Positions 2,795 through 36,059 of a stretch of DNA of 64,000 bases are shown here, piece after piece. Every line of letters begins with the position of its first letter. The first letter of the stretch is position 1. The stretch comes from Escherichia phage vB_EcoM_EC001. The notes below the pieces were generated by a model. It did not search any database, was not told where the DNA came from, and was given only the letters and a program-made list of their open reading frames with translations. A program made the position numbers and the translations under genes. The DNA lies in sequence record MN445185.1, one strand, 5' to 3'.

Positions 2795-5539
2795 ATGGTA
2801 GAAATTCAAATGACTTACACGAGTATGGGGGTACGGGTTGAAGTCCCTATCCGCCAGGCTGAAAGGGCCATACTCGCGTGGGCCGAAGAGAATATGCACG
2901 CCCCAAAGATGGGCAAGCAACATGGACGAATAACTACGGAACGCGGTGACGCGTACTACGCCCACATTCCGTCTTTAAGGACGTTCATTTTCCATAAAGT
3001 GTTCGCTGAGAAGATTAAACATATCCTCCAACGAGCAGCAATTGAATATGCTTTTCAGTACAAGCTTACAGAGCACCATCCTGAGCGAGGAACACCTTAC
3101 TGCTGTACATTTGATAACTACGGCTTCTCGATGGTAGAAAGCGATCCGGAGTCGCGTTTCTACTATCAGAACGAGGTTGTGGATGCAGCGTCCGATCCAA
3201 ACCGACCACAGACAATCTTTGCCATTCAGACAGGGAGAGGAAAATGCTGTGCTCATGGTACGCGTGTGCGTGTACCGGGTGGTTGGAAGAACATTGAGGA
3301 TATACAGCTAGGTGATTACGTTACGGGGCGTGACGGAAAACCAGCAATGGTCTCTGGAGTGTTCCCACAGGGTGTGGTTGACCTGTATCAGGTGACGTTT
3401 TGGGATGGTAGGAGTGTTGACGTATGTGGCGAGCACTTGTGGCAAAGCTACTACGTTAATACCACCGAGAATCGTCGCTGGGGTGTACGTGATACCCTAG
3501 AGATGAAACGTTTAATTTCGATGCCTAATCCACGGGTATACATCCCATTACCAGAACCAGAGGAAATGCCAGCTAAGGATTTTGTCATTCATCCGTATTT
3601 ACTCGGTATCCTCTTGGGTGATGGCTCCCTATCGATGCCTGGTGTTTTATACACCAAAGGCGATGTGGAGATTCGTGACCGTGTTGCTGAGGTCATGCCC
3701 GCTGGACATGCAATCCATGATTCATCGTACAGCGATGGGATAACGAAGTGCATCTCTTGTCCCGGCGGTGTTAACCTTGTCCGCAGAGAGCTTGAGCGGT
3801 TAGGGTTAATTGGCTGCAGGTCTTGGGAAAAGTTCATACCTGGAGATTACTTCGAAACGTCCATCGAACAACGGTGGGAGTTGTTGCGTGGCTTGATGGA
3901 TACTGACGGTACTGTGGATAAGGATGGTGGTACGCCTTCTTTCTGTTCCACCAGTAAAGAATTGGCTTTAGGTGTTCAGGAACTTGTGCGGTCTTTAGGA
4001 GGGATTGCAACACTACGCGAGAAACGTCCGTTCTTCACACACAACGGCGAACGTCGTGAAGGTCGTTTGGCTTATAACGTCTCCATCCGCCACAAAACAC
4101 CATCGAAACTGTTCCACCTTCCAAGGAAGAAAGAACTGTGTCGTGATAACGGACAATACACCGATATACTGAAACTCCGTGTTAAGTCTATCGAACCCAT
4201 TGGTCGTGATCTTGCCACGTGTATTCGTGTCGAGAACGACGATGCGTTGTTTGTGGTGGACAAGTGGATCGTTACGCACAACACCAAGACCTGTATGAAG
4301 TCGATGGTTAAACGGGGAACCCGTACCGCATTGATTCACCGTCCGTCGTACGTTCCCAAATGGCTGTTTGACGTCTGTGATGATGAAACAGGACTTCGTA
4401 TACTTCGTGACGAGGTGTTAGTTTGTACAGGCGTACAGGCGATTTACGACGCGCTGGAGATGGGTAAGTCGGGAGAGCTAGATAGTCGTGGTATTAAGGT
4501 AATAATCCTCCCCACGGTCTCTCTACAGCGTTTCCTGAAGGAGTACATTAACACTGCTGCGACTAACCCTGTGGACCTGGATACGTTTTATGATGTTCTG
4601 GGTGTGGGTCTGGTGGCGATGGATGAGGTGCACGAGCATTTTCACCTCGTTTACATGGCTGGTATAATGTTGAACCCTCCGGCATCGATAGAGATGTCTG
4701 CAACCCTTAAGCCGGGTAGCAGTAAAGCCTTTATCGCGGAGCGGTATTTAGAACGTTTCCCAATGGAGTACCGAATCAGTATTCCAATCATTCCGGTGGT
4801 TGACGTGAAGGCGTTGTACTATCGACTGGATGATAAGAAGTTTGCGTGGTGGGCGTCGAAGATGACGCCGTATAACCACAAGCTCTTCGAAGGGAAGCTG
4901 ATTAAAGAGAACTTGCATTTAGAATACGCGAACATGATCTGGGATGTGGTTGAGAAATCGTTCCTTAAACGGTATCAACCTGGCCAAAAATGTTTGATAC
5001 TCTTTGCTACGGTAGCGATGTGTGAGTTCTTTACCGAGTATGTGAAAGATAAGTTATCGCGTGACCCTGTATTCCATCCGTTGATGGTGGCGAAATATAA
5101 TGCAGGCGATTCGTATGACGACTTTATCCAAGCAGACTTCTCTATCTCCACACCGGGGAAAGCGGGGACTGCGGTCGATAAACCTGGGTTGGTACACATG
5201 TACATTTCAACCCCGGTAGAAGACCAGCAACTGAACGAACAGATGGCCGGTCGTCCACGTAAGATTCTCCACAACGAATGGGGTGAAATAGACCCAACGG
5301 TGTGGTTATTCCATGCGTATAACGTACCGAAGCATTGCAATTACCTGAATGCCCGCCAGAAATCACTCAAGGATGTCGTATTGTCGTTCCGTATCGCGAC
5401 ATCCCCCTACGTTGTAAGGAAATCACATGCTCACTCCGCCGCGTCCAGCAGAGCCGCTGCCACCCTACATCGGAATGACTTTAGCAAGTTTTCTCGAAAA
5501 CGTTCTAAAGGCGTATCCCGGCGTAGAAGACGTCGCTAA
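2795..5539 (+). CDS. SF2 DExH-box helicase interrupted by an intein (914 codons, about 568 aa after splicing)
   Basis: Motif I AIQTGRGK|T restored after intein removal, motif II VAMDEVHE, motif III MSATL, motif VI QMAGRPRK; ATG 2795 with GAGGGG SD; the track start 2738 is a TTG inside the upstream gene. Confidence 0.75.
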   Translation: MVEIQMTYTSMGVRVEVPIRQAERAILAWAEENMHAPKMGKQHGRITTERGDAYYAHIPSLRTFIFHKVFAEKIKHILQRAAIEYAFQYKLTEHHPERGTPYCCTFDNYGFSMVESDPESRFYYQNEVVDAASDPNRPQTIFAIQTGRGKCCAHGTRVRVPGGWKNIEDIQLGDYVTGRDGKPAMVSGVFPQGVVDLYQVTFWDGRSVDVCGEHLWQSYYVNTTENRRWGVRDTLEMKRLISMPNPRVYIPLPEPEEMPAKDFVIHPYLLGILLGDGSLSMPGVLYTKGDVEIRDRVAEVMPAGHAIHDSSYSDGITKCISCPGGVNLVRRELERLGLIGCRSWEKFIPGDYFETSIEQRWELLRGLMDTDGTVDKDGGTPSFCSTSKELALGVQELVRSLGGIATLREKRPFFTHNGERREGRLAYNVSIRHKTPSKLFHLPRKKELCRDNGQYTDILKLRVKSIEPIGRDLATCIRVENDDALFVVDKWIVTHNTKTCMKSMVKRGTRTALIHRPSYVPKWLFDVCDDETGLRILRDEVLVCTGVQAIYDALEMGKSGELDSRGIKVIILPTVSLQRFLKEYINTAATNPVDLDTFYDVLGVGLVAMDEVHEHFHLVYMAGIMLNPPASIEMSATLKPGSSKAFIAERYLERFPMEYRISIPIIPVVDVKALYYRLDDKKFAWWASKMTPYNHKLFEGKLIKENLHLEYANMIWDVVEKSFLKRYQPGQKCLILFATVAMCEFFTEYVKDKLSRDPVFHPLMVAKYNAGDSYDDFIQADFSISTPGKAGTAVDKPGLVHMYISTPVEDQQLNEQMAGRPRKILHNEWGEIDPTVWLFHAYNVPKHCNYLNARQKSLKDVVLSFRIATSPYVVRKSHAHSAASSRAAATLHRNDFSKFSRKRSKGVSRRRRRR
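3245..4282 (+). mobile_element. intein with LAGLIDADG homing-endonuclease domain (346 aa)
   Basis: In-frame insert begins with Cys right after GRGK, ends VTHN followed by Thr; two LAGLIDADG-type motifs LLGILLGDGSL and LLRGLMDTDGTV. Confidence 0.75.
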
Positions 5540-26720: not shown

Positions 26721-26746
26721 ATTTCAGATATATATTACCTAGGTGA
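26721..26746 (+). promoter_or_regulatory. phage promoter-like motif, class I (ATTTCAGATATATATTACCTAGGTGA)
   Basis: 26/26 identical to 35839..35864; just downstream of a terminator, 43 nt before ATG 26789. Confidence 0.6.
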
Positions 26747-27550: not shown

Positions 27551-27608
27551 ATATTACGTTAGCCCGAAACCGTATGTAATCGACCATTAATCTTAAGGAG
27601 TATTTATA

Positions 27609-34875: not shown

Positions 34876-35673
34876 ATGAAAGCGATTCACACCTTTCGCA
34901 TGACCGGCCAAACTGTTCTCGACATTGATGCGTATGAAGCCGCTAACTTCACCAAACCGACCAAGCTCTGGGATCGCTTGGTTAAGGTACTGCCGCAAAG
35001 CGGTGAGGTGCAGTTGGATTTTGTCATGGCATCGACGTTGGATAAAACAGTGGCAGTTATTTATACTGCTGACGGTGTGCAGAGTAAGAAGGACCTGGCA
35101 ATCGAAGATAAAGGCGGGCTGGGTTATCACTTGTTCCTGCACTGCGTAACCACTGCACCGATTTCAGCTGCGCTGGCGGGACAGTACGGTTTCGCGAATG
35201 CGTATTTCCTGGCACAGAAACTCGCCGTGAATGTTATTCCGGGTGACGTGACCACTTACCCTGAATACGTACAGCGTATCCTGCCAGAGCACTTCGCTGC
35301 AGACGACTACGATTTCAACGTGTTCCGTTTCGCATTGATCGGCGAATCGCGCGATCCAGAATACACCGTTGGCTTGCGTGCCTGTCTGCGTCACTCCGTT
35401 ATCTCTTCGGATGAAGGGATGTCGAATAACGTGAACGAAGTGTTCCCGATGATGCAAGTCGGTCCGTATATCACTTTCAACTCGTACATTCCGTTCCCGG
35501 CACAGATTCTGCCGCCGCAGAACGATAACAGTGTACTGCCAATCGCCGACAAGTATTCACTGCGTGCGAGCGAAGCAGTTGAAGTGATTAACGATCGTCG
35601 CTTTACATTGTCAGTGACCAGCGGCATCAGTGAACCGGAAGTTGCGGTCTCTCAGAGCCTGGATTTGATGTAA
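34876..35673 (+). CDS. hypothetical protein, possibly structural (265 aa)
   Basis: CTTAAGGA SD; moderately biased codon usage; followed by terminator. Confidence 0.75.
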   Translation: MKAIHTFRMTGQTVLDIDAYEAANFTKPTKLWDRLVKVLPQSGEVQLDFVMASTLDKTVAVIYTADGVQSKKDLAIEDKGGLGYHLFLHCVTTAPISAALAGQYGFANAYFLAQKLAVNVIPGDVTTYPEYVQRILPEHFAADDYDFNVFRFALIGESRDPEYTVGLRACLRHSVISSDEGMSNNVNEVFPMMQVGPYITFNSYIPFPAQILPPQNDNSVLPIADKYSLRASEAVEVINDRRFTLSVTSGISEPEVAVSQSLDLM

Positions 35674-35680
35674 AAGTGTG

Positions 35681-35715
35681 CCTGGTCTCCTTGTGAGACC
35701 AGGTCTCTTTATTTT
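35681..35715 (+). terminator. rho-independent terminator
   Basis: CCTGGTCTC/GAGACCAGG hairpin then T-rich run. Confidence 0.75.
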
Positions 35716-35717
35716 AG

Positions 35718-35828
35718 CCCTCTAAACGCACTCACAACCTTCTAAAGCCTCTCTAACGGTAGAACGACCCTCTAAAGTGATAAAAGCTCTCAAAACGCGT
35801 TTGAGAGCGTTATAGAGGGTATACTCTG
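35718..35828 (+). repeat. array of CCCTCTAAA(G)-like direct repeats plus near-palindrome CTCTCAAAACGCGTTTGAGAG
   Basis: Copies at 35718, 35738, 35748, 35768; palindrome 35787..35807; inverted TATAGAGGGTATA at 35811. Confidence 0.6.
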
Positions 35829-35838
35829 AATAAAAATA

Positions 35839-35864
35839 ATTTCAGATATATATTACCTAGGTGA
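35839..35864 (+). promoter_or_regulatory. phage promoter-like motif, class I (ATTTCAGATATATATTACCTAGGTGA)
   Basis: Identical to 26721..26746; 52 nt upstream of ATG 35916. Confidence 0.6.
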
Positions 35865-35915
35865 TAGAAGACAATCTATCAACTCAATCGACTATTAATC
35901 TAAAGGAGTATTGCC

Positions 35916-36059
35916 ATGTTAACTCGTAACCATAAACGTGCCATCTTCGCCATCGTTGCTGTTGTTGCTTTCGCGGTATTGTCTATCACTGTAACTCAAG
36001 ATTACAACAAATGCATCGATAACGGTAACTCTGTTGCCATGTGTACAGGTCGCGGCTAA
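35916..36059 (+). CDS. small membrane protein (47 aa, one TM helix)
   Basis: TAAAGGAGT SD 6 nt upstream; hydrophobic core AIFAIVAVVAFAVLSITV; below the ORF-track size cutoff. Confidence 0.5.
   Translation: MLTRNHKRAIFAIVAVVAFAVLSITVTQDYNKCIDNGNSVAMCTGRG

Follow-up and report, generated by a model that had tools for sequence, protein, structure and literature searches.

Does a cluster of short repeats, lying between a transcription terminator and an early promoter of a phage, serve that promoter, or does it belong to a more general class of DNA element? The question is raised by positions 35718-35828 of a 64,000 nucleotide stretch (hereafter, the window) of the genome of Escherichia phage vB_EcoM_EC001, sequence record MN445185.1. 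The sequence-only reading of this locus had described four direct repeats, a near-palindrome and an inverted element between the terminator and the promoter motif, and had proposed either an array of binding sites for a regulator acting on the promoter, or a structured element. All these features, terminator and promoter motif included, were found where that reading had placed them.

The explanation that we favour, and to which we give about even chances, is that the repeats form a helix-phased array, acting at the DNA level, of putative binding sites for a cooperative protein, and that they represent a module widespread among mobile elements rather than an operator dedicated to this promoter. 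The 2-kb piece surrounding the array is 98-99% identical to DNA of the SPN3US-group Salmonella jumbo phages (Seoulvirus, genomes of about 240 kb); SPN3US positions are converted to window positions by subtracting about 29,568.

A single repeat unit underlies the array

The four direct repeats consist of CCCTCTAAA at 35718 and 35768, CCTTCTAAA at 35738 and a weaker CCTCTCTAAC at 35748; the near-palindrome CTCTCAAAACGCGTTTGAGAG lies at 35787-35807, and the inverted element TATAGAGGGTATA at 35811-35823. These are one unit and not separate elements, because CCCTCTAAACGC is the reverse complement of GCGTTTAGAGGG, and the other elements read GCGTTTGAGAGC and GCGTTATAGAGGG: all features of the array are copies of a 10-12 bp unit, GCGTT(N2-3)AGAG(GG).

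Seven units are recognized, five in reverse orientation on the minus strand (R1 to R5, 35718-35798) and two in forward orientation on the plus strand (F6 and F7, 35797-35819). Of the reverse copies the best is R1 (CCCTCTAAACGC, 35718-35729), which immediately follows the terminator. R2 (CCTTCTAAAGCC, 35738-35749) and R3 (CCTCTCTAACGG, 35748-35759) are degenerate, the latter being variable in the close relatives SPN3US and MET_P1, and are followed by a further reverse copy, R4 (CCCTCTAAAGTG, 35768-35779). In the "palindrome" two units of opposite orientation meet head to head, R5 (GCTCTCAAAACGC, 35786-35798) as its left arm and F6 (GCGTTTGAGAGC, 35797-35808) as its right arm, while the inverted TATAGAGGGTATA corresponds to F7 (GCGTTATAGAGGG, then TATAC, 35807-35819). 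The starts of the reverse units are spaced by 20, 10, 20 and 18 bp, close to whole helical turns.

When up to one mismatch is allowed, the total number of CCCTCTAAA matches in the window is ordinary, 9 against 10 expected, but their clustering is far above chance: four of the nine fall inside 102 bp, and the same four are the sole cluster of four among the 33 matches found in the whole 240-kb SPN3US genome. Under random placement, the probability of at least four matches within 110 bp is about 3e-6 for the window (9 matches) and about 1e-5 for the SPN3US genome (33 matches).

The array core is conserved among related jumbo phages

The gap holding the array, 240 bp in the window, separates a gp201 homologue (34876-35673) from a run of small genes starting at 35916. 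The equivalent gap was compared in 13 other phages, all with a gp201 homologue of 40-80% protein identity. Three to six tandem forward units, with a period of 10-11 bp, are found just upstream of the promoter in Machinavirus, Erskinevirus, Wellingtonvirus and other Seoulvirus phages, as in ChrisDB, where they read GCGCTTAGAGA GCGTCTGAGG GCGTTATAGAGGG; the palindrome is present in none of these forward-array relatives. In Derbicusvirus (CR5, Phobos, EarlPhillipIV) the promoter directly follows the terminator, and no array is seen.

The gap was aligned for seven phages of four genera, in which the flanking protein is 47-58% identical to that of the window. Only three islands are conserved: the terminator stem, the array core, with an invariant GCGT..AG.GCGT, and the promoter. 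The core is about 75-85% identical in the four genera, and the intergenic DNA around it cannot be aligned; judged from its persistence as an island in such DNA, the core is ancestral and under constraint or selection. F6, which carries the invariant GCGT..AG, is its middle unit, and F7 its terminal one. R5 occupies the slot that in other genera holds the first forward unit, CGCTTAGAGA, and is therefore the ancestral array's first unit, either flipped or replaced.

The stretch containing the four CCCTCTAAA copies of the window is, in the seven-phage set, unalignable; by this comparison, only the SPN3US lineage has the palindrome and the four additional reverse copies. A unit resembling R1 is partly retained after the terminator in Machina, Asesino and phiEaH2. 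In the close relative MET_P1, one arm of the palindrome bears two changes, neither of them compensated.

The module recurs in the SPN3US genome and in T5-like phages

The core AAAAnCGCTTAGAGnGCGTTACAGAGCGTTTTAGAGGG recurs in SPN3US at 137.5 kb and, weakly, near 240 kb. A scan of SPN3US with a profile built from 12 arrays produced two strong matches, the array under study and 137,541-137,583. The latter consists of three forward units, immediately followed by a bidirectional terminator, in the space between the convergently oriented gp108 and gp107 genes, and is positionally conserved in SPAsTU and phiEaH2; a weak early-promoter-like sequence, ATTATATTAC, lies about 25 bp from it, on the opposite strand. 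Looser copies were detected at about 240.03-240.25 kb, within a long non-coding stretch at the end of the SPN3US record. The two record ends (239,883-240,413 and 1-1,185) comprise about 1.7 kb of non-coding DNA, featuring loose units (GCGTTTTAGAGGGGG at 240,059 and CGCTCTAGAAAGCGCTAGAACGAG at about 240,170), GC-rich alternating stretches (ACGCGTGCGCGTGCGCAC) and, at 110-215, a block of about 100 bp of almost pure A+T.

Outside the jumbo phages, a 34-bp sequence of the T5-like Escherichia phage SuperGirl (AAAAACGCTTAGAGAGCGTTACAGAGCGTTTTAGA, at about 102,000 of NC_105116.1) is 94% identical to the 137.5-kb copy of SPN3US. The window aligns to the T5-family module through the three-unit core CGCTTAGAGAGCGTTACAGAGCGTTTTAGA, to which F6, F7 and the R5 slot correspond. 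A 40-mer consensus found matches in 613 phage records, and in 376 of these the match covers 80% or more of the 40-mer. Hundreds of the records belong to T5-like phages of Escherichia, Salmonella, Klebsiella and Vibrio, with matches in the non-coding DNA of the terminal repeats. The record of Salmonella phage S114 annotates the matched DNA as resembling the T5 injection stop signal.

The SuperGirl array (2496-2547 of the stretch examined) lies in a 930-bp untranslated region adjoining the A1/A2 pre-early genes, with a DnaA-like box, TGTTGATAA, immediately after it. About 540 bp further on (about 3040-3075 of the same stretch) there is another array of looser match, GCGGCCTAGAACACGCTACACGGCGTTTTCTCAC. 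The untranslated region of SuperGirl corresponds to the repeat-rich one that Davison (bioRxiv 10.1101/866236) describes as highly conserved and of unknown function; the injection-stop region of T5-like phages comprises, in the same description, repeat regions 2 and 3, with IRC/IRD and DnaA boxes in pairs. The array may lie within one of the repeats named by Davison, either IRC or IRD. The window array and the T5 region share the same three-unit sequence, their non-coding nature, and their conservation among phages whose neighbouring genes are not conserved. Their surroundings are different: the T5-like array is found in an untranslated terminal-repeat region of about 1 kb, beside DnaA-type boxes and within long inverted repeats, whereas the window copy lies in an internal intergenic gap of 240 bp, between a terminator and an early promoter, has no paired DnaA-type boxes next to it and is accompanied by five reverse copies.

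The module in plasmids, chromosomal islets and bacterial genomes

Alignment of the module across families gave a clear consensus, AAAAnCGCTTAGAGnGCGTTACAGAGCGTTTTAGAGGGTATT, with a period of 10-11 bp. The 40-mer consensus matches 1236 of the 5426 complete E. coli genomes, at 1655 plasmid and 457 chromosomal places. IncX1 plasmids contain two module copies, about 190 bp apart, between the origin, with its iterons and DnaA box, and the stbDE toxin-antitoxin genes; the pair was located at 3505-3540 and 3693-3725 of the stretch examined in the IncX1-type plasmid NZ_CP029182.1, and is also present in pB182_37, typed as IncX1. Both copies lie downstream of a sequence resembling the ColE1/pBR322 primosome-assembly-site region (TTCCGCTTCCTCGCTCACT...GGCTGCGGCGAGCGG), and the 260-bp segment including the pair is found in about 955 plasmids. 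Neither the module nor a function for it is mentioned in the published description of IncX1 (PMC3332091), and literature searches by module sequence strings returned only artefacts from CRISPR guide scaffolds.

Smaller plasmids carry the module as well. In those of 2.2-2.7 kb, it falls in the 3' part of mobV. The 1.5-kb plasmid p7CC-1kb features two array-like stretches (240-345), near sequences resembling a primosome site and a bom site. These stretches lie inside an open reading frame annotated as "rep protein", in a frame differing from that of the mobV copy; the annotation looks doubtful, because this reading frame covers the primosome-site-like sequence and lies near the bom-like one. On the chromosome of E. 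coli 2013C-4225, a copy (TAAAATCGCTTAGAATGCGTTACAGAGCGTCTGAGAAG, 5000-5040 of the stretch examined) is found in an islet between yciI and tonB, composed of two serine-recombinase genes and, between them, of 1.1 kb of non-coding DNA which holds the module.

An exact 18-mer scan of species genomes produced 26 matches, about the number expected by chance according to our own rough estimate. Only those in Rheinheimera, Providencia, Rahnella and Vibrio, and a few others with multiple units, look genuine; the genuine-looking matches adjoin integrases, a lambda-P-like gene, prophage (tail) genes and, in one case, a ParA gene. A degenerate pattern scan of viral contigs was set aside, being uninformative and yielding mostly chance matches.

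Coding potential and RNA structure

Open reading frames of at least 30 amino acids are absent from the gap, which is overlapped by some of 22-29 amino acids, and by inspection no reading frame is kept consistently across the module copies, the frame differing between contexts. A sigma-70 promoter in the gap was also considered and rejected: none was found, and the hexamers picked by eye are wrongly spaced. No Rfam match of any weight was obtained in the window gap; none, up to an E value of 0.1, was obtained in the T5-like, IncX1, small-plasmid and islet loci or in the last 40 kb of SPN3US, the 137.5-kb locus being outside this search. Folding of the gap is more favourable than that of shuffled sequences on both strands (z of -2.8 and -3.0), because in the SPN3US lineage units lie in both orientations. 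The palindrome (35786-35808) and the TTTTATCAC which follows it score, on the minus strand, like an intrinsic terminator; there is no minus-strand gene upstream, and the arrangement is not conserved in other genera.

The early promoter and its relation to the array

The array ends about 20 bp upstream of an early promoter motif of the virion-RNA-polymerase type (ATTTCAGATATATATTACCTAGGTGA, 35839-35864, plus strand), which is outside the shared module. Promoters of this kind have been described in jumbo phages as an AT-rich, conserved block of about 10 nucleotides upstream of early operons (PMC7598289), and the TCAGATATATATTACCTAGGTGA motif next to the array fits that description. The repeats themselves are not part of the phiKZ-type promoter class, most copies of the promoter having no array. 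A single further copy of the motif is present in the window, at 26721-26746, and its SPN3US counterpart has no array upstream, in agreement with the sequence-only reading. In SPN3US six strong copies of the motif (TCAGATATATATTACYTAGGTGA) were found, each ahead of a cluster of small genes; one of the six is preceded by the array, the other five following a terminator directly. An upstream TTTATCGTCTTA motif, which accompanies the array in relatives, was considered as the mark of a general promoter class and discarded, as it does not occur genome-wide and three loci are too few. In SPFM2 (LR535921.1, 65,743-66,240) the promoter core is present as a 27-bp tandem duplication, with AGATATATATTACCTAGGTGATAGAAG occurring twice; this could be either a real promoter duplication or an assembly artefact.

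Across the seven aligned phages, the distance from the array end to the promoter motif varies from about 22 to about 32 bp. In SPAsTU, pEa29, pSal-SNUABM-04 and pEa4, array and promoter are separated by a stand-alone gene of 131-136 amino acids (1665-2069, 2449-2844, 2434-2838 and 2455-2865 of the stretches examined), encoding the N-terminal domain of a DNA ligase, Nlig-Ia (PF22745); the domain was confirmed in three of the four, pEa29 being unscanned. The start codon of this gene is located 8-10 nucleotides past the last unit, which supplies its GGAGG or GAGGG ribosome-binding site. The gene is patchily distributed within genera at the array/promoter junction, which suggests its repeated gain or loss at exactly this point.

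The variable spacing, the intervening gene and the presence of the array at one promoter copy only argue against a dedicated operator of this promoter. A link between the array and the adjacent promoter is accordingly doubtful, and the regulator acting on this promoter, as proposed by the sequence-only reading, is weakly supported, the more so as the module is found elsewhere with no such promoter.

Comparison with known systems

Phased arrays of short units are well known in plasmids, where they include the 11-bp repeats of R1 parC, bound by ParR, the heptad arrays of the omega protein, and TP228 parH. The window array resembles these centromere and operator arrays in having short units at about one helical turn, in tolerating direct and inverted orientations, in lying in promoter-proximal intergenic DNA, and in the cooperative binding by a small protein that such an arrangement implies. 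It differs from them in the unrelated sequence of the unit and in lacking an adjacent gene for a partition ATPase or a small DNA-binding protein; a lytic jumbo phage, moreover, has no obvious need for partition. The window thus has the phased repeats of a partition centromere, but no genes for partition were seen near them; one Sphingomonas 18-mer match, which may be due to chance, lies upstream of the ParA gene mentioned above.

Tandem half-sites of 10-11 bp are also typical of OmpR/PhoB-type regulators, and arrays of three sites of the Xis/Cox excisionases, a geometry common among DNA-bending winged-helix proteins. Head-to-tail units, a 10-11 bp period and three contiguous core units are shared with the window array. 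In contrast to these systems, the phage locus has neither a recombinase att site nor a response-regulator context, and comparison by eye only revealed no match to the consensus of OmpR (GTTACA-type), PhoP, CpxR, ArcA or PmrA. The iterons of R6K/IncX gamma origins are likewise direct repeats, and the two module copies of IncX1 are no more than a few hundred bp from its iterons. The module is, however, distinct from the 22-bp iterons and lies outside them, and the phage copy has no adjacent initiator gene.

A proposed function and its alternatives

According to the explanation that we favour, an ancestral three-unit module, with consensus AAAAnCGCTTAGAGnGCGTTACAGAGCGTTTTAGAGGGTAT, would be represented in the window by F6, F7 and the slot now holding the flipped R5, and the SPN3US lineage would have inserted four more reverse copies between the terminator and this core. 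Each unit would bind one protomer of a cooperative, sequence-specific protein. Since the units are phased, the protomers would share one face of the helix, and the units placed head to head would let about 100 bp bend or wrap into a single nucleoprotein complex. A protein able to bend or wrap DNA cooperatively is expected because the units recur at one turn, three of them are contiguous in the core, either orientation is accepted, and conservation concerns the duplex in otherwise unrelated contexts. Of the alternatives offered by the sequence-only reading, the binding-site array is therefore the best supported, through phasing, use of either orientation and a conserved core, from which we infer the binding itself.

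As near-identical copies are found in elements with almost no proteins in common, the partner is more likely to be a host protein, or a protein very widespread among mobile elements, than a regulator private to SPN3US. Similarly, an architectural role, with the array serving as a boundary, anchoring the DNA or assisting DNA transactions, is more likely than a role in controlling this promoter alone; if the promoter 20 bp downstream is affected at all, by occlusion or by blocking read-through from the late operon, this would be secondary. A more specific proposal, which we advance tentatively and hold to be rather improbable, is that the three-unit module of about 35 bp is an unrecognised and widely shared cis element of enterobacterial and Vibrio mobile DNA, docking one conserved host protein that invading DNAs would use on entry or shortly afterwards, for instance for anchoring, protection or priming.

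A repeat cluster in an intergenic gap of a phage is a common kind of feature, and the value of this one comes from the conservation of its core and from its sharing by different elements. The new point is that IncX1 and other plasmids share the core with the candidate injection-stop region of T5-like phages, which is the best conserved and least understood part of their non-coding DNA. The docking proposal, if true, would provide a handle on the long-unresolved T5 injection-stop signal and point to a host dependency common to very different elements. Identification of the partner would connect the early biology of jumbo phages, the two-step injection of T5 and plasmid maintenance; should it be a host protein, it would also bear on the use of host factors by nucleus-forming phages.

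Several observations weigh against the favoured explanation. Searches by blastp and phmmer revealed no protein common to the array neighbourhoods of the jumbo phage, the T5-like phage and the IncX1 plasmid, and no binder was found. We know of no E. coli regulator whose consensus fits the unit; nor, judged by eye, do boxA, Tus Ter, Xer cer/dif, Fis, IHF, OmpR, PhoP, CpxR, ArcA, PmrA, ToxR, OxyR, MuA end sites, the lambda cosB R sites or YbaB/EbfC fit over the whole unit or its period. In the 2.2-kb plasmid pSEV4_7 (1408-1454), the module falls within the mobV reading frame, where it encodes ...KRLQSVTEPFKG..., and in the species scan many of the matches outside Gammaproteobacteria roughly equal in number those expected by chance. 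Close relatives differ too little to reveal selection on the four extra reverse copies: of the roughly nine substitutions that separate them, all lie outside the three best CCCTCTAAA cores, which is not significant (P of about 0.1). Finally, phages of the SPN3US type are considered to shield their DNA within a protein shell, which would limit the access of host factors; if the shielding is real, this access would be confined to particular stages.

One of the other explanations is a dedicated operator or activator array, through which a phage-encoded regulator would switch the adjacent early promoter on or off during infection. The distance of about 20 bp in the window, the forward array just upstream of the same promoter in most relatives, and the weak ATTATATTAC about 25 bp from the 137.5-kb copy, although on the opposite strand, are in keeping with it; we nevertheless regard it as unlikely, because five of the six strong SPN3US promoter copies have only a terminator upstream, Derbicusvirus keeps the promoter with no array, and the variable distance of about 22-32 bp allows no fixed helical phase. 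Besides, the Nlig-Ia gene intervenes in four relatives (SPAsTU, pEa29, pSal-04 and pEa4), and the module is found at the 137.5-kb terminator, in T5-like phages and in plasmids, in all cases with no such promoter after it. The Nlig-Ia gene is itself at the centre of a different explanation, in which the array would be a module junction or a leftover 5' region: the upstream or leader sequence of a mobile Nlig-Ia cassette, or a homology patch for cassette exchange, retained or duplicated after loss of the gene. The close fit between last unit and start codon in the four relatives, the retention of GGGTATTACAC in ChrisDB, which has no such gene, against GGGTATTACGCATG in pEa4, and the variable cluster of small early genes downstream speak for it. 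It is less likely than the operator, and in our opinion improbable, given that the array is about 75-85% identical in four genera lacking the gene, in DNA otherwise unalignable, that the 137.5-kb copy, which is followed by no gene, is also conserved, and that the module occurs in T5-like phages and IncX plasmids with no connection to Nlig-Ia.

An element recruiting or positioning host machinery, as an auxiliary to replication, priming or entry, with the SPN3US sites at 65, 137.5 and 240 kb being origin-associated, overlaps in mechanism with the favoured explanation. Copies of the module recur in the vicinity of replication features: the IncX1 pair lies 150-350 bp from iterons, DnaA boxes and the ColE1-like primosome-site sequence, the 1.5-kb plasmid copy beside the same primosome-like sequence and a bom-like site, and the T5-like copy beside paired DnaA-type boxes (bioRxiv 10.1101/866236). 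The Providencia prophage copy is found just after a lambda-P-like gene, the V. cholerae copy 11 bp from a TATCCACA box, and in the window a DnaB-like helicase gene lies 2.5 kb downstream. In contrast, no DnaA box is found within several hundred bp of any SPN3US copy (none, for TTATCCACA with up to one mismatch, at 35600-36000 of the window or at 137.3-137.8 kb of SPN3US), and no initiator gene adjoins the array, which is flanked by the gp201 homologue and by the small early genes, neither of which gives a Pfam hit. An iteron-type origin would combine a cluster of direct repeats with an adjacent AT-rich unwinding region; the repeats are present, and the sole AT-rich stretch (35829-35860) is the promoter itself. 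An origin suggested by GC skew was discarded, since the skew merely tracks gene orientation; the T5 origins have been reported near the middle of the genome, and not in this region (bioRxiv 10.1101/866236). Jumbo phages of the SPN3US type have, in addition, their own replication proteins, and we consider this explanation a little less probable than the operator. A structured nucleic acid, be it a hairpin or cruciform, a minus-strand terminator, a small RNA or a leader formed by the palindrome and inverted units, is the least probable. The favourable folding on both strands and the terminator-like score of the palindrome followed by TTTTAT agree with it, but there is no minus-strand gene upstream to terminate, no Rfam match appeared in the contexts searched, and orientation relative to the flanking genes differs between loci. 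The structured element of the sequence-only reading has in fact already been largely refuted through lack of conservation, the palindrome being absent in other genera, where all units are forward, and altered in MET_P1 by two uncompensated changes in one arm.

Neighbouring features

The gp201 homologue upstream of the array has no Pfam match and is located downstream of virion structural genes. This late or structural gene is ended by the intrinsic terminator revealed by a terminator scan on the plus strand, a hairpin (GCCTGGTCTC...GAGACCAGGT, 35680-35704) followed by a T-run, extending in all over 35680-35715, the stem of which is conserved in relatives. On the other side, the small early genes give no Pfam hit, and the first of them, of 47 amino acids (35916-36059), is preceded by a conserved leader and ribosome-binding block (AATCGACTATTAATCTAAAGGAGTATT, 35886-35915, plus strand). 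This block, as AATCGACYATTAATCTWAAGGAGTATT, precedes early genes twice in the window, at 35886-35912 and 27578-27604, and a related one, ttcgactattatcttaaggagtatt, is found before early genes of SPAsTU; it may be a translation-initiation module shared by early genes.

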